DNA of 64,000 nt from Octopus vulgaris (GCA_951406725.2 OX597817.1:118668001-118732000), one strand, 5' to 3'. Counted from the first letter of the stretch, positions 4,590 to 59,614 are shown. Program-made: numbers and translations. Notes: generated by a model not told the origin, from the sequence alone.

Positions 4590-6680
4590 CAGTGGTTATT
4601 AACCTTTTCACTACCACGCTTCGCCTAGGAATTTGTCCTTCTCTCCATTCCACGCCCCTCCCCTTGTATCTATGAATAAATTTCTTCCCAGATTTTAAAT
4701 AAAATCTAAAATATGTACTCAGTCTTTTTATTAAATATGAATTAGTCACTTAATACAAAATATAAATAATTTTATATATAATCACAATATACAAAAAGTG
4801 ATATACTTGACACTGCTTCTTAGTAAAAAAAAGTTTTTTTTATTGAATATGAATTAATCACATTATTAGTGAGATACATAAAGCCGCTTCTTAGCTACAG
4901 AATCTTGAATGCATGTTTGAATGCCAGAGAGTGCACAACGTAAGTCCATTTCAACGTTCAGCTTGTTTCTGTACTTATTCTTGACAGCAACGAGCGTGGA
5001 AAATGTAGCTTCACAAAGATACATGGAACCAAACAGCTAAAATCCGAAGAGCCTGATGTGAGATCAGCGGTTAAACAGGAAGGTACCTGATTCAGTTCTT
5101 TGAAGTCTTCCTTAACTTGGGAGTTGAACTTCAGCTCAATAAACTCCTCTTGTACTTCATCTAAACCATCAGTCAAAAAGGTTCCTGATGAATTTCCAAG
5201 ATTCACGCTTTTCATCCATATCTGGGAAGTATCTGATGAATTCTGTTTTCAAGTCAGTTGGATGACTGATTATTTGTTTCTTTAATTCAGAATCAAGGTT
5301 ACCGTGAATGAGAGCAGAAACTAAGTAACTAAAACTGGCTGTATTCCTTCCTGAATTCGACATTTCCAGAGGTCGAGTTTGGCCATGAAGGTTCGAATAG
5401 CGTCGTGATGCTTTTGATGTTGATGGTTTTCCCTTGTAGTTTAAGGTCGAGAGCATTCAACACTTCGAAGATGTCCACCGGGCAAGCTAGAGATAGCCGA
5501 AAACCTTCTGACTGGAACTTGTCATGGAAATCTACTTTCTACTGCAAATCTAGAAATATTGCTACTTCTTGTACGTTCGTGTGAAAAAAGCAATATTTCA
5601 TTGTCAGATTCCGTATCTTTACACAACAGTTTGAAAAGACGTCTGTTTAAGGCTCTACCTTTAACAAAGTTGACAACCTTGACAGCCATGATCAGGATAT
5701 TTTCCATTTCAGTAGGTAAGGTTCGGATGTTAAGGCTTCATGATGAAGTAGGCAGTGTGCACCTAAAACAGATGGATTTTTTTTTCTACCTTAGTAATGA
5801 ATCTAGATTGCAGACCAAGCATAGATGGAGCTCCATCAGTGCACACACATACCAGCAAATCCCACGAAAGTTGATTTCCTGAAAGAAGTTTGATACATCA
5901 CGAAAAATAGCAGCTGCTGTTCTACAACTATTCATAGGGTGACACAACACTTCTTTTACACAGTTGCCTAATACAAAACGAGCATATACCAGTAGCTGAG
6001 AACACTAGACGATGAGTGTCGTTTCGTCACACTGGATGGTAAAAACAGGAGAATTACTTGGTCGAGAATTTGATATTTGATGTCTTCAGACAAGTCGATT
6101 TTTCATTTGACTGTATTGTTTGATAGTAAAATCTGGGAAAGCTTGTTTGCGCTATCTTTCCCCAGAACTAGTTCTGCTTCACGGAGTGGACTTGGTCTTA
6201 CGAAATACTCTCCTATGTTATAGTTCTTCTTGCTCTTTGCATTCAACATGGCGATCTCATCTCATTGAAGTTTGTTACCGAAATACCCCACTACTTAGTT
6301 TGATTCTAGGAATGTCTTTTTGTTTCAAAGAATGCCTTGGGCTTGTCTGCGAGAGCTAGATGTGTCGTCTTCAAATGTCGTCTTAAGCGTGAGGGTCGCA
6401 TTTCATTACTGCTCAAAGTTCTGTAACATATCACACACTGGGGGATTTCTGTCTCACCCATTTGGAGGGACACGAATCCAAATCGGATATATTCGTCAAG
6501 TTACTTCCGTTTCTTTGCACTCATTGCGAATTGTTTGATGTGCAGTAGACAACACAAACATGTGAACAAAGGATAAGGGACGTGAAAGGTAATGTCAAGG
6601 CTCAAATTAGAACACTAGCCCTAGTTAGAACACTTGGAGTAAAATGTTCTGAAAAAAATTAAAACAAAAAAAATTGGAAT
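4590..6680 (-). mobile_element. Degenerate hAT (Buster/SCAND3-ZBED8-like) transposon, 3' portion with one TIR
   Basis: TIR CAGTGGTTATTAACCTT at 4590 beside an NNNTANNN-type flank (TTCTAAAT); minus-strand remnants VKVVNFVKGRALNRRLFKLLC, LKTEFIRYFPD, VQEEFIELKFNS and a CTDGAPSMLG motif; many stops and frameshifts. Confidence 0.85.
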
Positions 6681-6684
6681 ATCA

Positions 6685-9997: not shown

Positions 9998-10293
9998 TAT
10001 TTAGCGCACATGGCGGAGACGTAAACTGACCCCACCCCACCAAACTTAATTTTTTTTTTTTAACGGAATCGCACGTTTTCGGCTATGGAGATTCCCATTC
10101 TGAAAAAGAATTTTCAAATATCTCAACTTCAAAATTCCATCACACCCGCTCCCCTCCTTGAAATTTTGAAGTTGCGATTTTTGAAAATTCTTTTTCAGAA
10201 CTGGAATCTCCGTAGCCGAAAACGTGGGATTCAGTAAAGAAAAAATTAAGGTGGGGAGGGTTCTATTTACGTCTCCTTCATGTGCGCCAAATA
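9998..10293. mobile_element. About 296-bp near-perfect palindrome (foldback/MITE-like, probably Merlin-related)
   Basis: Left arm TATTTAGCGCACATGGCGGAGACGTAAA...CACGTTTTCGGCTATGGAGATTCC...CTTCAAAATT mirrors right arm AATTTTGAAG...GGAATCTCCGTAGCCGAAAACGTG...TTTACGTCTCCTTCATGTGCGCCAAATA. Confidence 0.85.
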
Positions 10294-10550
10294 CAAAGGG
10301 TAGGAGGATATGACAACGTAGGGAAGATAGGCCATCAAACGTGGGTTGTCGGGTGTTATAACACCACTGTGAAGAAAGGATTTTTACAGCACGTACCTGA
10401 CAGAAGCACAGCAACACTGGAAACTATAATAATAGAAAATGCGTTGCCCGCTACTGTAATTCATACCGGTAAATGGGCAAGTTATAGAAATTTACAGCAA
10501 CTTGGCTATATTCACCGAACGATAAGCCATTCACAGAACTTCGTTGACAC
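10285..10550 (+). pseudogene. Merlin / ISXO2 (IS1595-like) DDE transposase fragment
   Basis: WVVGCYNTTVKKGFLQHVPDRSTATLETIIIENALPATVIHTGKWASYRNLQQLGYIHRTISHSQNFVD matches the ISXO2 pattern WV.G...V.DR...TL..II...PG..I.TD.W.SY..L...H..VNH..FVD; catalytic TD reads TG. Confidence 0.9.
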
Positions 10551-10551
10551 T

Positions 10552-11036
10552 TGCGGGGGAGGGTGTCACTCAAGAATCACCGGATACCTTAGCCTGGACC
10601 GAAAACCCGAATTGGTCTTCGCAGTCTCCTGCGAAGGTCATATCGGAGGTCAACATGTCCAGGGTGTTGGGCTCCTTTACGAAGGACTTGTTTAGAGTCA
10701 ATTTTTGAGACCCCGACCGGGATCCGGAGCAGTACCTATAGGCAGCTCACAGCCTGGTCGGGGGCGAAGAAGAATAGGCTTAGCGCCGAAACATGTATAT
10801 ATTTGTAATGATTAATATTGTAGTCATTTTACACGAATTGTAAGAGGTTCATTGCCTCATGTAATGTATTGTTAAAAGACAATGTTATAGAGAAGCAGAG
10901 GGTCGTCGGGCGCTTTCTGTCTTCTCTCATCCTTATCCTCCTTGTATTATTATCATTCATTTCATTAATGTCTTGTCCAGCCCGCAAAGCTACCCAATCT
11001 ATGTACTGTCTTCATGACAAATTTAATGAAATAAAG
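10552..11036 (+). mobile_element. 3' part of a Tx1/L1-like retroelement (3' UTR and tail)
   Basis: Last 40 nt (ATCTATGTACTGTCTTCATGACAAATTTAATGAAATAAAG) closely match the tail of the Tx1/L1-like element ending at 13185. Confidence 0.65.
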
Positions 11037-11400: not shown

Positions 11401-11899
11401 ATTTGTTTTCATTCATCTCATTTTTGTATATTGTCAAGCCCGCAAATGCTTTTGCGTAAAGCCCTTGAGACTAATTTTATGAAATAAAGAAGCTTGTTTT
11501 TTCTCTGAAAGGAATTTTATCGTTTAATATTGGATTTGTTACTGTTGGACTTGTTATTGTATTTTTGGATTGTTATTATTGTTCAACTTTGTGCTGTTGC
11601 CGGGTGACAGAAATTGTTATTTCCTTTTGTAGCCATTGTGGCAATTTTTAAACAAAATACTGCGAAAAAACTGGACTTGTTAAAGTCATTTTAGACTTAA
11701 ATTTCGTTCACCTTCGGGGGCGGGATTTGAACTATCGTCGAAAAGTTTATAAACTATTTTTGCGAAAAATTATTATAGATTTTCCTTATGGAAAACCGGT
11801 TTTTGTGTTATATTTTCTTCTGTAATTAATTTCGACCGAGTATGTCGGTCGAATTATACATGAAAAATGCACTCCCGAAGAGGGTAAGAAGGATCTTTG

Positions 11900-13185
11900 C
11901 TTTTTATATAATGGCCTTACCTAACCTTCGTTGTTTGAATGTGTGTTGTGTGAGTTCGAAGTGGCAGCAGGCTTGTTTCCTCGACGACCTCAGATCACAC
12001 GATATACATGTGATGGTTGCTACAGAGACCAAGTTGGACAGTCTACAAACCTTCTCGCCTTTTCCGCTTTTTGTGGAAGGGAGGAAAGCCGCTTGTGAAG
12101 CGCTCTATCTGCTGCCAGAAACCGCTAAAGGGTGGGTTACGGATGCCTTGGCTGAAGATGTGAAAACTCTTTACCTGGATGGGGGGCAGGTGTGTTACCG
12201 CACGTCTGGTTCTACCTTCCGTGTTTAACGTCCTTAACGGATATTGGGGCATGGATCAAGCAGAGACTTAGGCTGGGAGACTGGCAATTGGAGTGCCGTC
12301 AGGCACTTCAGCGACTCTCTCGGGCGGGCAATGCCGGCAGCAGGAGTACCACCGCGGATTTTTATAGCGAGTTAGTGGGTTTTATGTCCGAAGACGCCTT
12401 GGAGGAGACCCTGGGCTACGATCAAAATCAGTTGATCAACCTGTTCAGAAGAACGTTCAGGCCGGGGTATCTGGATAATTACCAGAAATCCCTGGCGCGA
12501 CAGTGCTTCCGTGCGGCGTTACCTGTTCGAGACAAATTGTAAAGCACGGGAGTGCCGTCTCGCCGACATGTCCAAGGTGCGGGCATAACAGGGAAACCGT
12601 TTTGCACGCATTTGTGGAGTGTCCGATAGTTTCCACAGAACAACTGTTGTCATTGATGGGAAGAGTACAGCTATCATTTGAGTCTATCATCGTGATTGTG
12701 TCACCTCCCTCCCTTAACAGGAAAAGGAAGGCTTGTTTTTTCTACGTAGTAGCCATACTGAAAGAAACAGTATAGAAGACGCGTGTAAGAGGGATATTGG
12801 CAGATTCTTTCGTCTCCGGCCAGGGGTTCGTAAACTTTTTTAGTTACCACATCATAAGTAAGATCAGGCTGGAGAAGAGGTATCTGTCGCTGAGTAGGTT
12901 TGTAAAAGGATGGAAGCAAGTTGAGAGTGACCAGCACCAAGTAAGTGCGATCAGTGGTAGAAAGTAAAGGTTCCACCCAGATGGCTAGATTCCTTTCCCT
13001 CAGATGCAAATTGTTGCTTTTTGCAACAATATTTATGTAAATAATTTTTTAAATTACATCCGTAATCATATCGTTCATACGAACACTAATTTTTAACTAA
13101 AAGCAACTTCTTCACCCTTTGTGTTTGTCTGTCCTTGTTCGTCCCATCTGTGTACTGCCTTTATGGCAAATTTCATGAATTAAAG
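11900..13185 (+). mobile_element. Internally deleted Tx1/L1-clade non-LTR retrotransposon (APE endonuclease start and C-terminal zf-RVT/CCHC)
   Basis: N-terminal LRCLNV...DIHVMVATETKL (APE motifs); C-terminal ALPVRDKL...CPRCGHNRETVLHAFVECP; RT core absent; 3' tail ends ATTAAAG at 13185. Confidence 0.85.
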
Positions 13186-13550
13186 AAGCTTGCTTCCCAA
13201 CCACGTTTCCGGGTTCAGTCCCACTGCGTGGCACCTTGGGCAGAGTGTCTTCTGCTATAACCCTTGTAAGTAGATTTAGTAGACAGAAAACGGAAGAAGC
13301 AAGTTGTATGTGTGTGTATGTGTGTATGTATGCATGTGTATCTTTCTTTCCCCCCCACGACTGCCAGCTTCGCTTAAATCCAATGTTGTTGTGTTCACTC
13401 CCCGTAAATTTGTGGTTTGACAAAGAAACCGATAGAATAAGTACTAGGCTTAAAAAATAAGTACACGGGTTGATTTTTTTCCACTAAAAATTCAAGACGG
13501 TATCGCAGCATGTCCGCAGTTTCATGGCTCAAAGAAGTCAAAGATAACAG
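13186..13550 (+). mobile_element. SINE family A lacking its A-box
   Basis: AAGCTTGCTTCCCAACCACGTTTCCGGGTTCAGTCCCACTGCGTGGCACCTTGGGC and family A 3' half. Confidence 0.9.
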
Positions 13551-13870: not shown

Positions 13871-15665
13871 TAGTGGTTTTTAACCTGGAGGCCGTCAGTA
13901 ATTTCCAAGGGGCTCGCGAGCCCTTGAGAAAATTCAGGAATTCTGTAAATATATTTGTTATTCTCTTAACAATAGCATGGTCAAATAATGAGAAGCTTAC
14001 GAAAAACTGCAAAAGTATCCCCTTATACCTTTAGTTTTCTTATTCTATTATGTTAGCACGCTTACGCTTTACTGTACTTAGTGACCCCTTCATATCCCTC
14101 AAAACCCTCACTAATTCTGAATTTGCCTTTATTTATTTATTTATTTTTTGTTACAAGACTCAGGTTAAGAGTATAAAGCTTAGATATTATTATCGTGTGA
14201 AGACAAAAGTATTTTTCAGTTAATAGATGTACAACAAGTTTGATCCAGTTTTTATATGCATGAAATAATGCGATTCTCTAAAATCAAGACTCATGCTGAA
14301 ACATTATCAAATCATTATCATAACCTACTAAGAAATATTAACTTTATTTAAAAAATTGAAAATTATTTTAAAATTTTAGCAAAATGAAATGTATGATATA
14401 TTTGAAAATAGGAAATAAAACAAAGAGTATGAAATAAGTTCTAGTACGCTCAATTTAATAAATTCGCAAAAAAATTTTAAATACAGATTGGAAAAATAAA
14501 AAATTGTAACAATAAAACCAAAATTTTTTATATTAAATATTTATGCTAAAAATATGGTAAAATTTTGTAAGAAAAAAGTTATAATATAAAGCCAAATATT
14601 AAACTAAAATTCCGATTTAAATATAACAGAAAGTATTAGGTACAACAAAAAGTTATACAAAATCTTTTGTTTTTAAAGAATTTTTTTAATATTTTCGTAC
14701 AAATAAATACAATATTTCATTGTACAAATTTTAAGCATAACTTTCCTTTTAATTTAAGTTTTATTCCAATATTTTTGTTTTAATTTTTTTCTCAGAACAT
14801 TTTACTCCAAGTGTTCTAACTAGGGTTAGCGTTCTAATTTGAGCCTTGACATTACCTTACCCGTCCCTTATCTTTTGTTCACATGTTTGTGTTGTCCACT
14901 GCACAGCAAATAAGTTGAAATGAGTGCAAAGAAACGGAAGTAACTTGACGAACATATCCTATTTGGATTTGTGTCCCTTCAAATGGGTGAGACAGAAGTC
15001 CCCCAGTGAGTGATATGTTACAGAAGTTTGAACAGTGATGAAATGCGACCCTAACGTTTGGAACGACACTTCTTGCTCTCGCAGACAAGACCAAGGCATT
15101 CTTGGAAGCAAAGAGACATTCCTTGAAGTAAACTAAGTAGTTGGGCATTTAGGTAACAAACTTCAATGGTTTTTGAGGCTTCCTATGAGATCGCCATGTT
15201 GAATGTAAAGAGCAAGAAGAGCCATAACATAGGCGAGTCTCTTGTAAAACCAAGTCCACTCCGTGAAGCAGAACTAGTTCTGGGGAAAGATAGCGCAAAC
15301 AAGCTTTCCCAGATTTCACTATCAAACAATACAGTCAAATGAAAAGTCGACCACTTGTCTGAAGACATCAAAGATCAAATTCTCGACCAGTGTGACGAAA
15401 CGACTGACATCGTTCAGTGTTCTTGGCTACTGGTATATGCTCGTTTTGATTCAGGCAACTGTGCAAAAGAGGAAATATTGTTGTGTCACTCTATGGATAG
15501 TTGTAGAACAGCAGCGTCTATTTTTCGTGATGTATCAAACTTCTTTCAGGGAAACAAGCTTTCCTGGGATTCGCTGGAATGGGTGTGCACTGATGGAGCT
15601 CCATCCATGCTTGGTCTGTAATCTAGATTCATTACTAGGGTGCATTCGAATCATACCATCTGTGG
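13871..15665 (+). mobile_element. Degenerate hAT (Buster/SCAND3-like) transposon, 5' portion with one TIR
   Basis: TIR TAGTGGTTTTTAACCTGG after GTTTAGAA; remnants KSKKSHNIGESLVKP, QISLSNNTVK, QCDETTDIVQCSWLLVYARF, VCTDGAPSMLG; 14760-15660 is an inverted homologue of 5780-6680. Confidence 0.88.
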
Positions 15666-16008: not shown

Positions 16009-16515
16009 TCAGTTCATCCCATAAGTGCTGTCCGAATTTTAAATAAAGAAAACAAGTGATCAAATGTTATATTAAATAGAAATTTAATCATCAATGTACT
16101 TTCCCGGACTATCTATGACTTCCTTCCATCTATTTACAAACTTTTTGAACTTATCAATGTAAAACTCTTTTGGTTTCAAAGCGAAGAACTCTGAAATGTC
16201 AGTTTCTACCTCCTCCTGGCTTACGAAAGTTATGTCCCCCAAATGATTCTGTAAGCTACGAAACAAATGATAGTCTGAAGGAGCAAAGTAGGGAGAATAA
16301 GTGGATGAGGAATTTTTTTCCCAACCAAGCTCTTCGATCGTCTGTGATGTGATCTTTGCAGTGTGGGGTCGCACATTGTCCCGATGAAACATCACTCCTT
16401 TCCGATTCACTAAATCTTCAAAGCTAGTTCAAATGCTCTAATTGCTGACAGTAGACTTGAGCATTGATTGTTGCATTAGGTGGTAACAATTCAAAGTGAA
16501 TTACTCCTTTCAATC
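16009..16515 (-). mobile_element. mariner (DD34D) transposon, 3' fragment with TIR
   Basis: RKGVMFHRDNVRPH...YSPYFAPSDYHLFRSLQNHL...RWKEVIDSPGKYID; terminal TA-TCAGTTCATCCCATAAG. Confidence 0.92.
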
Positions 16516-16519
16516 ATAC

Positions 16520-16684
16520 CAGATAGAGAGAAGAATCGTTTTTCCCATGAAGTTCCCTACTCGGTTGTGGTTGAGCTTTTTCCCTTTTACCAAGCCAGTT
16601 TCCGACGTTTAACATCCGATAGAAGACCCATCTGTCCTTATTTGTCTCCTCTGTGTTTATCCCCTTGTGGGTAATGAAGAAATA
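16520..16684 (+). mobile_element. LINE-like 3' UTR/tail fused into a family B SINE
   Basis: Tail TCTGTCCTTATTTGTCTCCTCTGTGTTTATCCCCTTGTGGGTAATGAAGAAATA resembles tails at 13125-13185 and 50105-50158; the sequence upstream of it is not SINE body. Confidence 0.6.
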
Positions 16685-18294
16685 GGTATTTCGTCTGTCT
16701 TTATGTTCGGAGCTCAAATTTCTCTACGGTCGACTTTGCCTTTCATTCTTTCGGGGTCGATAAATTAAGTACCAGTTGCGTACTGGGTTCGATCTAATCG
16801 ACTGGTCCCATCCCCCAAAATGTTGGGCCTTGTGCCTAGAGTAGAAAAGAAGGAAAAAAAAGATGCTCTAGTACATTCAGTCGAAAATAAGCGCCAGTCA
16901 CACCTGAAAGATAACCATGCATAAGTACAAGAGTTGCTGTATGGTAAGAAGGCGGCTTCCCCTCTACTTGTTTCCGGGTTCAATCCCACAGCGAACTCAT
17001 TTCACCCTTTTTGGTTAGACTTGTGTCTGCTGACAAAAACGGATTAAGTCGATTATATTGACCCCAGTGCGTAACTGGTACTTAATCTATCGACCCCGAA
17101 AGGATGAAAGGCAATGTCGACCTCGGCGGAATTTGAACTCAGAACGTAACGGCAGACGAAATACCGCTAAACATTTCGCCTGGTGAGCTAACGTTTCTGC
17201 CAGCTCGCCACCGTAATGTACTAGCGCATCGTGAAATGAGATTCGTTGCTGTAGAAGATAACGCGCTGTCCATTTCAAAGAATCGAACCCATGCCCTGAC
17301 GATTCAAACTATTAAACTGTGTAGTTTCATGTAAAACACGAAACACTGTACTAATTAGAAATATAAGTATCTTTAGATTACAATTGATTAATTTTCCTAT
17401 CCGAGCTGAAGGATTACGGAGTATAATTTTATTTTCAACAATTACTTTTTATTTTAATTCGAGTATTATCTGAACGTTCTAAATGTGTCTTTTCTATCTT
17501 GATTAAAATCATCTCTTCTGGATAAAGAGAGACGACTGATTGTCTATTCATTCAGATGTCGATGATATTTTCAAAATGTATAATCATTCCGACATATGTT
17601 GGATTTTCAGCTTCGTACATCAGGTAAATTCGGTTACCGGGGAAAATATCCGTATGATTGTGTGTGTCGCTATGTGAGTGCGTGCGTGTGTGTGTATGTG
17701 TCACTATGTATATGTGTGTGTTGTGTGTGTGTGTGCGTGCACCAAGCGTGTATATATTTGCATGGTACAGTAGCCTAAACCAATGTCATCTACCAAAGCT
17801 TTAGTTTGGCTAAATTTGGTAGACTAAAATTATGTGAGAGTCTGCTACAAATACAATGTGTGTGTGTGTGTGTCTCTGTGTGTGTGTGTGTCTGTGTCTG
17901 TGTGTGTGTGTGCATTTGCATTGGGCAGCACCTTGAACTAATGTTAGCTACTAACGACGGAGGTTGACTAATATTATGTGGCTCGAAATTTGGTTGACTA
18001 AAACTGTACACAAGACCGTCATATATATATACATGTATGTGGGAGAGGGCGGACGGCGACGCAAAACATGTGGCTTAGCGGTTAAAGCGTAGCACTCATT
18101 GTCGTAAAATTGCGATTTCAATTTCTGGTCGGGTGATGTATTGCGTTTTTGAGAGAAACAATTTTTTCACATCAGTCCACATAGCTGACAAAAATGAGGA
18201 CGAATAATCCTGCGACTGGCCAACATCTCATCCCGGGATGTGGTGGGAGGATATATACGAGCACCATCAGCCAATGGCTAAGGGAAGGAGCTTT

Positions 18295-18358
<64 letters not shown>

Positions 18359-18484
18359 GCATGTTTGTATGCTGGAGAGGGGATAGCACGTTCTTTGTCT
18401 ATCTCCTTAACTTCTTAGAGATTTTAGGTATAATTATACTAATATTTCAATATGTTCTAATTTAATTAAATTCTATGTCTTCGT

Positions 18485-18570
18485 GCAGCTGAGGATTGCT
18501 CTGCATTTTAAATTGATGTAATGATTGCATTGTTCACTTAAATGGAGTTGCATGAAACGATCGTACTCTG
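18485..18570 (+). ncRNA. Type I hammerhead ribozyme, degenerate copy of the 22665 family
   Basis: CTGAGGA (18489-95), long imperfect stem II, GAAA (18554-57), palindromic ACGATCGT, GUA triplet; weak stem I and U-U at 10.1/11.1; downstream CTTGTTGCTTATTTTGATTATA identical to the 22665 copy. Confidence 0.7.
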
Positions 18571-18592
18571 GATATCCTTGTTGCTTATTTTG

Positions 18593-18643
<51 letters not shown>

Positions 18644-31210: not shown

Positions 31211-32769
31211 TTTTCACATATCGAATTGTGCTAGAAGTATTTTAATTTTTCCAATATCATTTTCACAGTTTCCTAAAATCTCTTTTAGACGTATCGAGTA
31301 GTTAATCGTGTTTTCAAATCTCATGAACACTTGGGAAAATGCTTTGCAAGATTTCATAAGAAACAATCGTAGGAAAAAGCTTATCCACTTTACAACCTTG
31401 CTCAGCAAATAAGTTGATACGATGACTGTTTCAGGAATTTGATATGGGGAACGTTATCTTTCGTTATACATTGCTGCAGGCTTTATGCTTGCTTTAGATA
31501 TCTGTTTTTATTATTAGCCGATTACCTTTCAATTCTATTCTCCAATTCTTTCACAATGTGATTGTGACATATAGGGCTTTGTATAGAATTAACTTGAAAC
31601 GAAAAATAAATACCTTCGGCCAAAAATGTGTAATTTCGTAATTTTAGCCTCTAGTGCAGAGGAACTAAACTTTACTTTAGAAAAATAAGCTTACTTCATT
31701 TTTACATCAGTTTCCTCAAAGTATTCTAAAACTGCTATCAGTTTCAAAAAAGCGAATCAGTCCTGGACAAGTGGAATAAATATAATTTTTAACAGAGTAT
31801 CACACATTTTGGCAAAGCGAATCATAACTGATTATAAAACGACTCCAATATCATGAATAATATTTTTTCATCCAGGTGATATCGGAAGTGGAGTTGATGA
31901 ATGTTTAGGGCAAATTTAGACATGGTGGAATGTGAGCACAAAACCGAAAGGGGTGAAATTATATATAACGAGTCATGTCGTCGGCTGTTCTTTTCAACCA
32001 CCAGTAACCAATATAAAAGATAGTGAGTTAGCTGAATCTGTGAAATAAAAGCTAAATGACTTGCAATATTTAGATGTGTGCCAAGGCGGCAAGCTGGCAA
32101 ATGACACCGAGGGTTGACTTTGCCTTTCATCCTTTCAGAAACGATAAAATAAGTACCCGTTGAGCAGAGCACTGAGATCGACATAATCGACTTAGCCCTC
32201 CCTCGAACTTGCAGGCCTTGTGCCAAAATTTGAAATCTATATTGAGATGTATACTTTTTAGGTTCTGACTTCAAATCCCACCAAGTTTTGCCTTTCATCC
32301 TTCCAGGGTGATTAATATAAAGTAGCAGTAAATTCTGAACTCGATTTAATCTACTGTACCGCTATAAAAAGTGTCTTTAAGGAACCAATATAGATATTGT
32401 AATATCTTGCGTTTTGCATTTACAACCAAACAAAAGCGCCACCTTCATCGTTTCTCTTGACGTATTCTACATCCGTGTTGACAGGAAGTGCCCATAAAAT
32501 ATATATTATTTTTGGCAGATCTTTTGCTAGTAACTTTATCACGAGCTTCTCTTTAGAAGACGCAAACTGGCTTTCATGGACATTTCACGAAAAACTTGCG
32601 ATTTATAAGCAGCCATATACGGTGATTTAAGCAATTGCATCCACTCTATCATATATCTATTCAATAAATAACTGGACTGTGAAGAAATTTTCATTGAGTT
32701 ACTATGAGTCAATTAATGTTCAAGAAGCTGAGGTAAAAAGATTTACGCTTATAGATTTTTTTAGTGTTC

Positions 32770-47793: not shown

Positions 47794-49926
47794 GAAAGTT
47801 TGCGAATATGTTGTGTAAATGTACATAAGAATCTTTAAGCAGGAAACAGATAATTTGATTCTAAGAAAAACTAGATTAGGGGAATATGTATTGTTTTTCT
47901 TTGTAAAAATTATAAAAGTGATACGGATTCAAGTTAAAAATAAGTCGACCGTTAGATAGACAGCGGGAGAGAGATATTTAGATATTATTGCTTAAAGACA
48001 TATAGGAGATAAGTATAGATGATTTTTTTAAAAAATTGATATCTATGAACTAAAATTAGGAATTGCATAAGAAATAAGATCATGACTTGTCAAAGAATTT
48101 TAATTTTTTTCTGTAGAAAATTTTGGCAACTAAAGTTTTTTATTGAATTGATAACTTTGCATATTGCTTCCGCACTTTACTCTTGATTATGAAGATACAG
48201 TTTTAGCAGTCTTTTCCTTAGTTGCTGGTCTTACTTAGATCTAAGTTACCTTCTATCAGGCAGACATGATGAAAACCGTTCTGTCACCTTCCCATATTTT
48301 TTACAAACTTAATAAATTCAGAACTATTAATTCAAGCGACGCCATTAAGGTTACTTTGACGAATTGTTTTCCCTTAGTAGAAACTTATTAAACACTCGAA
48401 TATGCCTGGTGTTATCCATATTTCTTTTATTCTTTCACTTCTTCATAAATTAAATGCAGCACACCTGTGTTTGAACTAAATTAGTTAAAACAAGCAAGTT
48501 TCAGAATACATCATCAAAACTAAAGTCTTAACTTAACTCCAAGCGCCCGTTACAGAATCTACCACTCAAAAGGTAAAGATCATGCCAAAACACCGTGTTT
48601 GGTAGTCTTGTGACGTCCCTTGGATCTATGTTTTTACATACAGTCTACAGAAAGAAATTATTCTCTGACATAAAATCCTACAGCGAATACTTTTCAATTT
48701 CTAGTAAGAAGGGGCATGTAAAAGAAGTTCACATATTTCTTCATAAATGTCCATGATTTGATACCACCAACTCTTAGAGCATAGCGGTTCTTCCAAACCT
48801 TTATATTCGACACTTTAATAACCCTACCAATTCGTGCCTTAAATGTTAATTTGCTTTTAAAATAGAACTCATTATTTTTATTGTTGTTTTATACATCATC
48901 TTTGTTCCTTTGAAAGCATACATCCAGCTTAGTAGAAATAGTTACTTCGTCGTATTTTCAGGTGTAGAATTTCTAGGACAATATTATTGATTTGTATTTC
49001 AAATATATCTCGGACTGTACTATCTGCTGCGCCCATCCATATTTATTATTTTAAAGACAATCGGTTGTGATTGACTACTATTTCTAGTATGATGAGCTAC
49101 CGTGTAGAAATTTCGTTTCCTTTTGATTTTAATGTTAAGCCCCAGATCAACCCTGATCGAGCAAAACTATGAAAGGAATTCCAGCCGTGATCATCCTGTC
49201 TTTTTTCTAATTACAGCTAACGCAGGAGCATATGTACTCTTTTCTGATTCAATTGTCTGAATCAAGGGAGATTTTGATGGTATTTCTAGCATGTAGATCG
49301 ACCGTATAATAGTACCTTTAGAAAACACTTGTTTGTCTTATAATCGACTGTCAGCCATTTGTTTCCAGGTTGTGGTTTTTATGGTTTTATTCGTTTAACT
49401 TTTGCTTTCAAAACAAAAATCAAGAACACAAATTTCTAGATTTCTAATATCGGTCCAACTTAATCATTTGGCTAGTATGGTGCCACAAAATAAATCCCTT
49501 TACTATCTTTGATGTTCATATTGCCACATGTGTATCCGTGCAGTCGATAATAACGGTAAACATATTTATCTTATCTAAATGATAAAATAAACTTAAAATA
49601 TAGAAAACCGTTTTATTTTTAAATACAGTTATTTACATACTGCACCGAACAATTTTGAAAAAAAAAGATATTTTTGCTTCAATATTTTCTTTTATACACA
49701 AACAGGTAATTTAACTAATTATCGAAATTGTCACGCAACACTGCTGAGCAGGCAGAGATTTTGCAGGCGATATATGATCTAATAGTTCTGTTAACACTAG
49801 AGTTTTAGCTAAGAGAAAAATGGAAGAAAAATATCTTGGTTCATAAACAGATTCTCTTAGTTATAATTATTTTCTGCGCTTAATATCAAATCATTTTTAT
49901 TTACATATATATTATTTAATTATATA

Positions 49927-50335
49927 AGGCGGCGAGCTGACAGAAACGTTAGCGCGCCGGGCGAAATGCTTAGCGGTATTTCGTCTGTCGTTACGTTGTG
50001 AGTTCAAATTCCGCCGAGGTCGACTTTACCTTTCATCCTTTCGGGGTCGATAAATTAAGTACCAGTTACGCACTGGGGTCGATGTAATCGACTTAATACC
50101 CATGTATGTCCTTGTTTGTCCCCTCTATGTTTAGCCCCTTGTGGGTAATAAAGAAATAGGTATTTCGTCTGTCGTTACGTTCTGAGTTCAAATCCGCCGA
50201 GGTCGACTTGCCTTTCATCCTCTCGAGATCGATAAAGTACCAGTTACGCACTGGGTCGATGTAATTGACTTAATCCGTTTGTCTGTCCTTGATTGTCCCC
50301 TCTGTGTTTAGCTCCATGTGGGTAGTAAAGAAATA
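49927..50335 (+). mobile_element. SINE family B tandem dimer with a long target-site duplication
   Basis: Full head AGGCGGCGAGCTGACAGAAACGTTAGC; second unit restarts at GGTATTTCGTCTG (50159); TATATATTATTTAATTATATA flanks both sides. Confidence 0.93.
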
Positions 50336-51389
50336 TATATATTATTTAATTATATAGCAACCAAGGGAGATAAACGTTAATAGAATATATTACGGCAATT
50401 ATTATGAGATTTATGATAGACAACGAGTTGGTACATTCCTTAGCAAGTGGTACGACATGCTTAGCGACATTTCCTCCGGCACTTTACGTTCTGGGTTCAT
50501 ATGCAGCCAAGAGTTTTTCATCTTCATCCTTTAGGGGTAGACAAAATTAATAATCGAGTACTGGAGTCGATGTGATCGATTAAACCCTGCCCAAAATTCA
50601 GGCCTTGTGTCTATAGTTGAAAGAATTGTGATTTCGTAAGACAGAAACTGATAAAATCAATAGTGACTTTTGAAACACACTGAGTTAAACCATCCGCGGC
50701 GCACTAAAACATCAAGCTGCATACAAGAGCCACGCAATAGATCCGACTAAGCGAGGTGGAGTCTCTCGACCTCCTAGATACAAGTGCCAAATCTCCTTGA
50801 AATCAAACTCTACCGTCATAGAAACTACATTAGATAATATGATTCAAATTCCTCGCACGAAGGGAAAAAACGCCTTAAGCGGTCAAACATGGGTTTTCTT
50901 TGATCATATTTTTGCTTAATCAAAACTAATCTGAAGTCAAATAACATCTATACAGATTGTATCACTCTTTACTGCCTGCACACAAGTATTTATAACATGC
51001 AAACTCAAATTTTCACACCTCATTTGAGCATAGGCCCTGAAAATATTTCTCAATCATAAGTTTTACCTCCTTCATAAATGCAAAGAACAGTAACTGCGAA
51101 TATCGCTGAAACCACATTATACCGCACCTTTTCTCGACCTGGACAACACGCTACAAATATTAGGCCTTACAATCACTAGTATATATCGTAGTGGTTTAAA
51201 TCTTATAACATTGCAAATATCTCGTCCTAAAGACTGGCCATCTTACACAGACAGAAAACTCTTTTGCAGCTGCTGCTGTCACACACAAAACTTTTTCGAT
51301 CACATCCAAAAGAAAGTCATTCAAACGATTAGTAATGATTCCCCCACGAACACATTTAGCTGTATACATATAGTTTTCTCCCGTATGTA

Positions 51390-55499: not shown

Positions 55500-57906
55500 G
55501 TGAGCAAATCTAATTAAAAAGAGGCCACTTTTGGATTCTACAGGAAGAAACGTTTTTCAAATATAACCGCTGAACACACCACACGGAGTTATATTGGTAA
55601 AAACTGGCGACAGGAGATCATGGGCGTTACAGCAATTACGTAGTTCCGAAAAAACCTGCTGACATAAACTTTAAAGATACAATGGACATATTGTGTAAAA
55701 TGTTTAGTGAGAAAAGCTCGTTGTTCAATACACGTTGGAAATGTTTGAACCTAGAAAAGAACAACGAGGGAGACTACATCACATATGCTGGTAGAGTTAA
55801 CAGGGAATGTGAAAAGTTCAAGCTGGACGAATCAACGCCAGGTATGTTCTAGTGCCTGATATTTACTCAAGGACTAATAGCAGATGTAAGGACAGAAATT
55901 CTCGCTAAACTGGGACAAAATCAAGCCGTAACCCTGCAACAAGTGTCAGAAGAATGTGAAAGAATAGTAAATTTAAGACATGACAGAGAAAACTGAACAT
56001 AAAGATTGCTCCCAAGTGAAACAAGTGAGAAATAAGCAGAAAAGAAATGAAGTGTGTACTAAAATACAGCACAAGCAGGACAAGAATGAGAAAAAAAACC
56101 ATGTTTTGCATGTGGAATTCTACACCTGAGGAAAAACTGTCCATTTAAGAAAGCGGAATATTTCCGTTGTAGAAAAATTGGACATGTAAAAGCGCACTGT
56201 AAAACTAAGATGACAAAACGTTGGAACAAAGGAAAGAGTAAACAGTGTGCAATCGAAAGAGAATGGTAATGCAACGAAGAAAAAATTCGTAAACCTGAAA
56301 ATTAGAAATAGAAGATTAAAAATGCAGTTAGACACTGAAAATGATATTACCATTGTAAATGAAAAAACTTGGAAGTATGTCGGTAAACAGAAATTAATGA
56401 AATCTACAAAAGTCGCACATGATTTTACGAGTAATAGATTGTATTTTGTTGGCGAATTTGTTTGTAACGTAATATTTCGTGACCAAATGAAAAAGGCAAA
56501 ACATACGTGCTAAAATATTCAGTTGATCTATTCGGCACAGAATGGGTGGAACTATTCAAATTGTGGGATGCGCCCATAAATGTTTTGAGTGGGATGTTTT
56601 GAGTCGATTCAGTCGAAGATTCGAATGACGCTGAGGGACTGAAATGATAAATAAAATATTTATTTCCAGATGTTTTCTCGGCGGAACTGGGTTATTGCAC
56701 GAAAGTAAAAACAAAAATTGCAGTAAAACAAAGTGCAGTACCTGTATTTAAGCCAAAACAGAATGCACCGTTCGCGAAAAAAATATCCACGATAAAAAGT
56801 GAACCTTGGCCAAAAGTAGATGTTCCGTGGTCAAGATTTTGCTGGTCCTATAAACGATTCATACTACTTAGTGGTAGTTGATAGTTTCTCTAAATGGCCA
56901 GAAATTTGTGTCAAAAACCAACCCCACTCAACAGTGACAAATGTTTACATGAGCTGTTTGCGATATTTGTCACTCCAGACGCGATTGTGTCTAACAAGGG
57001 AACGCTATTTGTGTCTTTTGAATTTAAAAAGTTTTGTAAAACTTTCGTGGAAGAACATGTAACTACGGCGCCTTTCCATCCCAGATCTAATGGACACGCA
57101 GAACGCTTTGTCGATACGTTCAAGAGTGCTCTAAGAAAGTCGAATATAGAAGTTACGGATGAGATAGCTTTACAAAAATTCTTAAGAGTATACCGAGTGA
57201 CACCAAATTAAATACGCCAGCGGAGCTGATGTTTGCGAGGAAAATAAAATCAGTCTTCGACAAATTGTTACTGGGCAAGAAAAGAAAATACAGCAAGATT
57301 TTTCAAAATTTGTGAAAAGGTGTTTGAGAGGGCATATAAGAATGGAAAAGAGAGTTGGCAAGATGGCGTGATTACCAAACGCATAGGGAAAATGCTATAC
57401 TTGGTAAAAAGTAGAAAAAACTTATACAAGACACACACGAACCAACTGAAAAAAAGAGATTCGTTGAGAGCGAACCCAAGAGAATGGAAGAAACAATGGA
57501 ATTGTTATATGATACTTTTCAAGTACCAACGCCAATACTGGTGACTGAATCCCGGCGCATAAGCGTATGAAAAAGAAAATTGAAGTGGATGCCAAGCGAA
57601 AAATATATTGTGTAACTACGAAAAAAATTCAATGCGTGGAGGTGGGTGATATAAATATCATTGCTAATAAAAGAGATAAAATGATATTCGCTAAGAAAAA
57701 AAGAAAACCTTAAAAGGGAATATGTTGTGGGGATAATAGTGCTAATGGTACACCCCTCCCGCGTGATGAGTGGTATATACTAGTCACTATAAATAAAGTG
57801 ATACCGGTCAGTATAGAGGAAGAGTAATGTAGTAGGCGTTCTTAGATAGTCGTATCTTTACAGGTCTAACAACTATACTGCTATACTGACATTAAGGATT
57901 ACAACA
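55500..57906 (+). mobile_element. Ty3/gypsy (Mag-like) LTR retrotransposon, decayed; RT/RNase H deleted; 5' LTR absent
   Basis: gag KSSLFNTRWKCLNL, zinc knuckle CRKIGHVKAHC, protease MQLDT, integrase DFAGP..YLVVVDSFSKWPE, PFHPRSNGHAERFVDTFK, YRVTPN. Confidence 0.92.
57723..57906 (+). repeat. 3' LTR (184 bp)
   Basis: TGTTGT...ACAACA termini, preceded by a polypurine tract TAAAAGGGAA; contains TATAAATAAA. Confidence 0.85.
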
Positions 57907-58311: not shown

Positions 58312-58354
<43 letters not shown>

Positions 58355-58436
58355 ACATAGGAATATATTACTGGGTATGTGTTATATATATATATATGTG
58401 TGTGTGTATACATAGGAATATATTACTGGGTATGTG

Positions 58437-58474
<38 letters not shown>

Positions 58475-58558
58475 ACATAGGAATATATTACTGGGTATGT
58501 GTTATATATATATATATATGTGTGTGTGTATACATAGGAATATATTACTGGGTATGTG

Positions 58559-58592
<34 letters not shown>

Positions 58593-58629
58593 ACATAGGA
58601 ATATATTACTGGGTATGTGTTATATATAC

Positions 58630-58665
<36 letters not shown>

Positions 58666-58816
58666 ATACATAGGAATATATTACTGGGTATGTGTTTATA
58701 TATATATATATATATATATATGTATACATAGGAATATATTACTGGGTATGTGTTATATATACATATATATATATATGTGTGTGTGTATACATAGGAATAT
58801 ATTACTGGGTATGTGT

Positions 58817-58850
<34 letters not shown>

Positions 58851-58877
58851 CATAGGAATATATTACTGAGTATGTGT

Positions 58878-58880
<3 letters not shown>
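58290..58880. repeat. Minisatellite: 10 copies of an about 28-bp unit separated by microsatellite spacers
   Basis: ACATAGGAATATATTACTGGGTATGTGT at 58291, 58355, 58410, 58475, 58532, 58593, 58668, 58726, 58789 and 58850, plus an outlying copy at 57952. Confidence 0.97.
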
Positions 58881-58908
<28 letters not shown>

Positions 58909-59614
58909 TTATTGACGTCATAAGAATTTACAAATTTCAAGGGCATGAAGTAATTATTTAATTCTTTTTAGAAACGGTTAATTTTGAAGCAAATAGATAA
59001 AAGTGTGCAAATATAACTTTGTAGCACAATATATATACACGTGTATGCATCTGAATCTCTCTCTCTCTCTCTCTATCTTTCTCTATCTATTTCTCTCTGT
59101 CTATCAACCTATTTCTCTCTCTCTCTCTGTATGTATGTATGTATGTACGTATATATATATCTGTTAAAGTAAGATGAACAAAAAAGTATTCCATCCGATG
59201 AGAGATAAATATTGTTTAATGTAGAGTATGTACTTATGAGCTACTAATAGTTACATACATTACAGACGTGGTCTCGGCAGGTTTATATAACATGTCTATG
59301 AGCATATAGCCTATACAATTTACAAATCAAGACGATAGAACAAGAGAAATCTCGAAAAGAAAAGAGAGGACGATAGATGCAAAAAATGGGAGGGTGAAAA
59401 AATACGGAGAAAGAAGTAGACAAGTGTGTGTGTTGAGTAACGCGCGTCTCGTGTAATCGTGTGTGTGTTTGCGTGTGCACATATACGTGTATACATTTGT
59501 GTGAGGCTCTCGTGTATGTGTGTGTGCGTGCATGTGTAAACGCTTTTGTTTAACAGTTGGTGTGTGCGTGTTCGGGTGGTGTGTGTATGTGCGTGACCTT
59601 ATAGTGTGCATGTG

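Follow-up and report, generated by a model that had tools for sequence, protein, structure and literature searches.

A recurrent internal junction in an octopus SINE family and its possible origin in repeat-directed insertion

The closest described precedent for a SINE that favours a repeat as its landing place is SINEU-3 of crocodilians. According to the available text of PMC4494074, it is presumably moved by a Tx1-type LINE, prefers another transposon as the LINE Tx1-Mar does, in its case a mariner MITE (313 of 347 copies), and forms tandems by successive insertion that sandwich a visible target-site duplication. The same text takes >20% of flanks in one repeat as its criterion of target specificity, and describes the Tx1 clade as target-preferring, with Tx1 inserting in Tx1D, Keno in U2, and Kibi and Koshi in microsatellites. 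Three further systems are comparable in form or habit. Complex SINEs, in the part of PMC3531059 at hand, consist of two units of <1 kb in one duplication that likely moved together. U6/LINE-1 chimeras fuse a full-length 5' partner in the same sense to a variably truncated LINE within one duplication (available excerpt of 10.1101/2025.02.02.635956). The L1-clade elements TRE5/TRE3 of Dictyostelium insert in windows beside tRNA genes via TFIIIB/TFIIIC (available text of PMC5911963). For octopus, the accessible parts of PMC13282606, PMC8967140 and PMC9115989 list tRNA-Deu and tRNA-CORE SINEs and L1-Tx1 LINEs, 80 L1-Tx1 families being listed for O. vulgaris (PMC8967140, PMC13282606), and mention neither a target preference nor a dimer; SINEs make up about 12% of an octopus genome, and most families are unclassified (PMC13282606, same parts). 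As far as their available text goes, PMC3747384, PMC4824008, PMC5786205, PMC4758252 and PMC5322556 provide background without bearing on the junction described here. No published description of that junction was found; Repbase, Dfam, Ohshima and Okada 1994 and the SINEBase supplements may hold it.

The window, meaning the whole stretch of DNA that was analysed, comprises 64,000 nucleotides of one strand of Octopus vulgaris (GCA_951406725.2 OX597817.1:118668001-118732000). It is AT-rich animal DNA, rich in simple repeats and SINEs, and a profile search returned ten pieces of SINE family B at E under 1e-6. Going by their motifs, family B is probably tRNA-Deu and family A, the other family considered, probably tRNA-CORE. 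At 49905-50356, a full SINE B and a head-less second unit are enclosed by one 22-bp target-site duplication:

49905..49926, plus strand: left copy of the target-site duplication, 22 bp, an exact match to the right copy
49926..49974, plus strand: SINE B head, likely the tRNA-derived Pol III promoter part, and 5' arm and loop of an RNA rod; normal 5' end at 49926
49975..50096, plus strand: body of unit 1, with a core in common with SINEs of another animal
50097..50158, plus strand: tail A of unit 1, an L1-clade-like 3' end that ends in GAAATA and is joined to 50159
50159..50335, plus strand: unit 2, a head-less SINE B from the junction base on, with its own tail A
50335..50356, plus strand: right copy of the target-site duplication, 22 bp, an exact match to the left copy

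A match as long as the 22-bp repeat was present in 9 of 5000 random place pairs at equal spacing. The original prediction held that one tail is fused to GGTATTTC at two loci, and this is exact: the joint AAGAAATA/GGTATTTC (slash marking the joint) is found in the window at precisely two places, 50158/9 and 16684/5, while the intact context CTTAGC/GGTATTTC is located at 49974/5. The donor at 50158 is indeed a SINE, as had been claimed, with unit 49929-50158 preceding the head-less 50159-50335. The proposed comparison of units within the dimer gave 87.5% likeness over 184 nt, with six substitutions in 116 body positions and two tails that differ at many places, some of these being common variants. 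Two private changes fall in unit 1 and seven in unit 2, a difference that is not significant (p 0.18); taken at face value, the direction is that expected if the 5' unit were the younger. A single insertion of a dimer and two successive insertions fit the element alike. With two units, about 410 bp and one 22-bp duplication, the element has the form of a complex SINE. It contains no run of four T. The insertion site is plain AT-rich DNA, so that targeting by tail A cannot be strict.

ARAGORN found 0 genes, and no tRNA row appeared at E up to 1, where a complex SINE would have a head with at least 60% identity to a tRNA over 60 nt; the A and B boxes of the SINE B head are read by eye only. Among 133 Rfam rows, there was no ribozyme, hammerhead or other, at the places of the dimer; the matches in the window were low-scoring and mostly simple repeats, and the SINE had none. 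A retrozyme or rolling-circle RNA repeat was rejected on the lack of a ribozyme match, the 87.5% likeness of the units and the different second unit at 16685. SINE B may belong to the Deu/Nin-domain superfamily, which is defined by a central domain homologous to the Deu/Nin consensus. Its 24-nt core is exact in 121 metagenome loci; the core-sharing loci that were printed are unrelated SINE-like repeats of another organism, with other heads and several different 3' parts. By BLAST, none of the 121 loci matched the head, SINE A or tail A, and the LINE end described below drew only two matches, both at chance level (E 0.56). The core pattern gave 0 matches in viral and prokaryote collections, and the tail pattern gave 0 in these two and in the metagenome collection.

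Four of the 24 public runs listed, X1 and X15 (organism A), X2 (organism B) and X14 (organism E), supplied contigs that were compared with 49800-50158. That X15 is RNA is a guess, and no evidence of expression is drawn from it. The figures count contigs, not loci, and are lower bounds; 15 joints are listed of 712, and 24 loose ends of 1544. Among the 15 joints listed, nine of nine that start from the tail end lead to 49975-77 or 49942-44. The former site is reached in at least 31 (X1), 51 (X2), 3 (X14) and 22 (X15) contigs, at least 107 together, and the latter in at least 5, 16, 14 and 3, respectively, at least 38 together. Loose ends before 49975 that carry the tail-A consensus amount to at least 437 (X1), 639 (X2) and 314 (X15) contigs, and are not among the six rows listed for X14. 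Loose-end contigs at the normal 5' end number at least 644 (X1), 863 (X2) and 53 (X15), which, as lower-bound contig counts, is the same order of magnitude. Junction-bearing contigs run to hundreds per run, to be set beside the at least 100 copies moved as dimers that define a dimeric SINE; the count says nothing on whether the units move as dimers. Within the window, two of the three complete tail-A ends meet the site. Collectively, the junction is common and fixed, not scattered, among the rows listed; it is a genome-wide feature and no local accident. On these contigs, the junction positions, whose count was suggested at the outset, favour a fixed site among the rows listed. Joints from 50158 to 50051 and from 50158 to 49960 exist beyond the 15 listed.

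Several details accompany this recurrence. The positions 49942-44 form a second tail-A junction site inside the head; for organism E, the rows listed show it more often than the 49975 site. Upstream tail variants differ, being GTAAT in the window and GTAGT in the contig consensus. Copies with tail B, too, insert at the 49975 site or close by. Separately, joints from 50093-50095 to 49925-49926, in which tail-B-type copies are followed by a complete head, recur in all three DNA runs. An X14 contig tracks the left flank of the dimer up to 49926 (7 substitutions, 2 gaps) and then departs from the reference for 159 letters, whereas the left flank in X1 and X2 contigs continues into the SINE head; the X14 contig is likely an empty site in organism E.

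The second place with the exact joint differs in what lies on either side of it:

16430..16630, minus strand: mariner transposase remnant (Pfam Transposase_1, E 3.7e-11), which likely continues 16087-16428
16631..16684, plus strand: 54-nt, 5'-truncated piece of tail A
16685..16860, plus strand: head-less SINE B of another subfamily, with tail B (end approximate)
17043..17214, minus strand: SINE B of the tail-A subfamily with an intact head, broken off where the tail starts; used as third copy

The donor at 16684 had been read as a non-SINE UTR. This reading fails: only 16631-16684 is tail, and the sequence upstream is the antisense mariner remnant, which rules out a LINE UTR or a LINE insertion at 16684. 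No SINE head was found upstream of 16631, and no duplication around the insert, the best candidate being 6 nt. Nor did the other half of the mariner turn up downstream, where the six frames of 16850-18600 yielded 0 families, and every reading of this locus therefore requires a deletion. Copies at 16800, 30090 and 50580 were said to carry a different tail, and tail B is seen on all three. Unit 16685 differs by 13-16% from three tail-A copies, which differ by 5-6% among themselves, and columns 97 and 100, near its 3' end, are the only ones at which it groups with every one of the three tail-B copies. On these comparisons, a separate event would be a simpler origin of the 16684/5 junction than a crossover from the tail-A dimer, which is possible.

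Further remnants lie elsewhere in the window. A piece of an IS1595/Merlin-like transposase lies at 10216-10575 (PF12762, E 2.7e-7). Two 85%-alike copies of a broken element, likely a hAT-type transposase, stand in opposite directions at 14762-15641 and 5788-6681. An integrase-core piece at 56894-57208, below the Pfam cut-off, is likely an LTR-element remnant, and a minisatellite of about 61-63 bp occupies 58312-58912 inside a TA-rich tract.

Tail A resembles the 3' end of a LINE within the same window:

11487..11496, plus strand: left half of a 10-bp duplication that flanks the LINE, its partner lying at 13183-13192; an earlier LINE-type end, at 11486, directly precedes it
11911..12982, plus strand: internally deleted L1-clade ORF2 remnant, with the endonuclease start followed by the C-terminal part with zf-RVT
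13123..13182, plus strand: 3' end of the LINE, akin to tail A; SINE family A comes next

Tail A (50277-50307) and this LINE end (13123-13153) are identical at 28 of 31 nt. No shuffle of the tail or of the LINE, 2000 of each, and none of 3146 window segments reached the score, which bears out the resemblance noticed originally. For the tail piece at 16631, the score against the LINE end was reached in 1 of 2000 tail shuffles. The likeness covers the 5' half of tail A only, and the last 30 nt differ. LINE-type ends at 11033 and 11486 close with GAAATA, as tail A does, and the one at 13182 with GAATTA. A similar small hairpin appears in tail A and the LINE end by eye alignment only, and tail A folds no better than shuffles (z -1.04 to 0.31). 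Relatives of the LINE, the named ones being from Argonauta hians, contain endonuclease, RT and zf-RVT domains, and the best solved-structure match is human L1 ORF2p (E 1e-50; R2, 4e-22). By its domains and this match, the LINE belongs to the L1 clade in the wide sense. A search of viral contigs with a relative of the LINE returned nothing.

Three LINE-type 3' ends, at 11033, 11486 and 13182, meet SINE A at one position, and no SINE A head was seen by eye upstream of any of them. The sequence upstream of 11033 contains no Pfam family and does not match LINE proteins, so that this end is LINE-type by its last 45 nt only. The 10-bp duplication is read from a 12-nt exact match at 11485/13181, the first 2 nt of which belong to the LINE ends. 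The duplication in SINE A and the three ends at one position indicate that SINE-preferring L1-clade insertion exists in this genome, and they make a clearer case of it than the tail-A dimer does. The original prediction had gone further and proposed that a SINE subfamily captured the tail of the very LINE that targets it. An L1-clade-type tail is there, but a LINE carrying the exact tail A was not found: the window LINE has only the first half of the tail and lies in SINE A, and the listed loose ends at the 5' edge of the tail (24 of 1544) are SINE body. The true partner LINE of tail A is one that we infer.

A third locus shows the same site taken in another way:

32016..32345, plus strand: old SINE B split at the junction site by a younger tail-B-type SINE B (32083-32238), the head of the old copy being kept
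32066-82 and 32239-55: probable 17-bp duplication of the nested insertion, 13 of 17 positions matching

None of 5436 null segments scored as high as the head upstream of the nested copy. The duplication is matched as well by 46 of 1500 random pairs and starts at the equivalent of 49975-76. The locus is a DNA-level insertion at the same site and favours a hotspot at the level of DNA. The insert ends at 32238 with a tail whose last bases, ATATT, could pair with the site, no special enzyme being needed. The joint from 50093 to 49991, found in at least 7, 4 and 5 contigs, may be the genome-wide form of this nesting.

On balance, the reading we prefer, and by a narrow measure think probable, is that an L1/Tx1-type enzyme preferentially inserts the tail-A SINE at the SINE B site, making dimers that likely also move as units. 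A SINE B subfamily would first have acquired its 3' tail from an L1-clade LINE, as the likeness of the two suggests. The endonuclease of such a LINE would then nick SINE B DNA at CTTAGC/GGTATTTC, where the loop of its hairpin has its base, and less often at 49942-44, and reverse transcription of the tail-A SINE RNA would begin at the last bases of the tail, GAAATA. The 5' side of the new DNA might pair with the homologous head of the resident copy, which would make the left junction invisible and leave a clean tandem of head, body, tail, body and tail. Since the dimer lacks a four-T run, Pol III would presumably read through it, and the dimer RNA could re-insert via its last tail, either whole (perhaps 49905-50356) or 5'-truncated (perhaps 16631). 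The fixed junction in four runs, the headed nest at 32016-32345 and the LINE duplication in SINE A count for preferential insertion. A downstream unit of either subfamily, with tail A at 50159 and tail B at 16685, is expected if any SINE B is a target. One concern is that no joint of a head plus duplication followed by a new head is among the 15 listed of 712. As for the self-targeted tandem arrays that were originally envisaged, the self-targeting agrees with the fixed junction in SINE B, whereas arrays of more than two units were not seen within the window.

The hotspot may also be an illusion of descent. One or a few founder dimers could have arisen by chance and been amplified as dimeric SINE subfamilies, the junction simply being inherited, an account that seems to us rather unlikely but that several observations suit well. 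The duplication flanks the whole dimer, which has no Pol III stop, and organism E appears to lack the element here, so that both units arrived after that split, most simply together. The 49975 junction is also scarce in organism E, with at least 3 contigs against 31 and 51 among the rows listed, as in a lineage-specific burst. Further, complex SINEs make up 13% of SINEBase families in the available part of PMC3531059. However, several founders at one base would be needed, covering the A-A and A-B combinations, two upstream tail variants and the headed nest at 32016-32345, and several founders at the same base already amount to a hotspot.

Whether DNA or RNA defines the site is brought into question by the structure in which the junction lies:

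49958..49987, plus strand: 13-pair RNA hairpin, loop 49971-49974, z -2.85

The SINE B head folds as a long rod (z -2.85; 2 of 200 shuffles), and its apical loop is followed on the 3' side directly by the junction base 49975. Read from the sequence, the 13-pair stem holds four G-U pairs. The variants 49970G and 49975C occur at 8.9/7.8, 9.5/9.4, 0.2/0.4 and 17.4/15.0% across the four runs; the two halves track each other and represent a compensatory change of the loop-closing pair. The variant, at 8-17% in organisms A and B and <0.5% in organism E, marks a lineage-specific subfamily that keeps the hairpin. The last 6 nt of tail A have their complement at a single place in the monomer, 49977, which is two bases beyond the junction. 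As a speculation, the loop may be likened to an anticodon loop cut at the tRNA intron position.

A DNA enzyme does not account for a junction at the edge of an RNA loop, so that an origin at the level of RNA stays in play. The SINE RNA could be cut in the loop and its head-less 3' piece joined to tail-A RNA by template jumping or ligation, aided by base-pairing between GAAAUA of the tail and the UAUUUC immediately beyond the cut. We regard this as decidedly unlikely, even with the position of 49975, the four G-U pairs that suit an RNA rather than a DNA structure, the compensatory variant and the single complement of the tail end all in its favour. The account also expects the single duplication round the whole dimer and the headless 16631, and U6/L1-type chimeras do arise by ligation or template switching, according to the available excerpt of 10.1101/2025.02.02.635956. 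It leaves the headed, duplicated nest at 32016-32345 unexplained, likewise the 10-bp duplication around the LINE in SINE A. Further, the tail end resembles the 5' arm of the hairpin, which ties the loop position and the complementarity to one another.

A related and very doubtful idea is that the RNA itself picks the site, the last six bases of the tail pairing with the TATTTC past the loop, either on nicked DNA or on loop-cut RNA. If this were true, octopod SINE multimers would be built by RNA-guided priming or ligation, beyond the sequence preference of an enzyme alone, and sister L1/Tx1 families would split the two main SINE families between them as landing pads. Local tandem duplication or rolling-circle copying of one monomer is highly improbable and largely refuted, since the junction recurs in four runs and also at an unlinked locus, where the second unit is another one, the tails differ at many places, and no ribozyme matched there. 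In its favour, the 6 body substitutions in 116 are close to the 7 in 127 by which the flank differs from organism E.

The preferred reading, enzyme-directed insertion of the tail-A SINE into SINE B, would have consequences beyond this locus. By landing in itself at a fixed base, the SINE would acquire, with every insertion, a promoter for Pol III and a place where it does no harm. Analyses of repeat number and age would be distorted wherever they count the pieces as separate copies. Natural events at the one site would number in the thousands, which would open the 5'-joining step of LINE insertion, as well as DNA versus RNA targeting, to testing in existing assemblies. As far as seen, there is no bearing on a host gene.

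Compared with the systems introduced above, the octopus element stands closest to SINEU-3, with which it would share movement by a Tx1-type enzyme, preference for a repeat and tandems made by successive insertion. The target here is the element's own SINE family at an internal site instead of a mariner MITE, the second unit is head-less, any duplication would be hidden by homology, and insertion in plain DNA occurs as well (SINEU-3 by the available text of PMC4494074). The window LINE resembles the Tx1 clade described there in the L1-like domains of its relatives, the repeated hits on one repeat position and the short duplication, the latter two seen for SINE A; SINEs are not named as Tx1 targets in that text. 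Complex SINEs, as the part of PMC3531059 at hand presents them, match the dimer in overall build, but here the second unit starts at a fixed internal base, second units come from different subfamilies and the site takes nested insertions. The same-sense fusion of a full-length 5' partner to a shortened 3' partner within one duplication recalls the U6/LINE-1 chimeras, except that here a SINE, cut at one base, takes the 3' place (available excerpt of 10.1101/2025.02.02.635956). TRE5/TRE3 likewise represent the L1 clade aimed at Pol III units; here, the joint is base-exact and inside the unit rather than beside it (available text of PMC5911963). These chimeras and TRE5/TRE3 serve as models for the rival readings. 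Most likely, the nesting of an octopod SINE in itself is a self-directed variant of the habit of Tx1-type LINEs of aiming at repeats.
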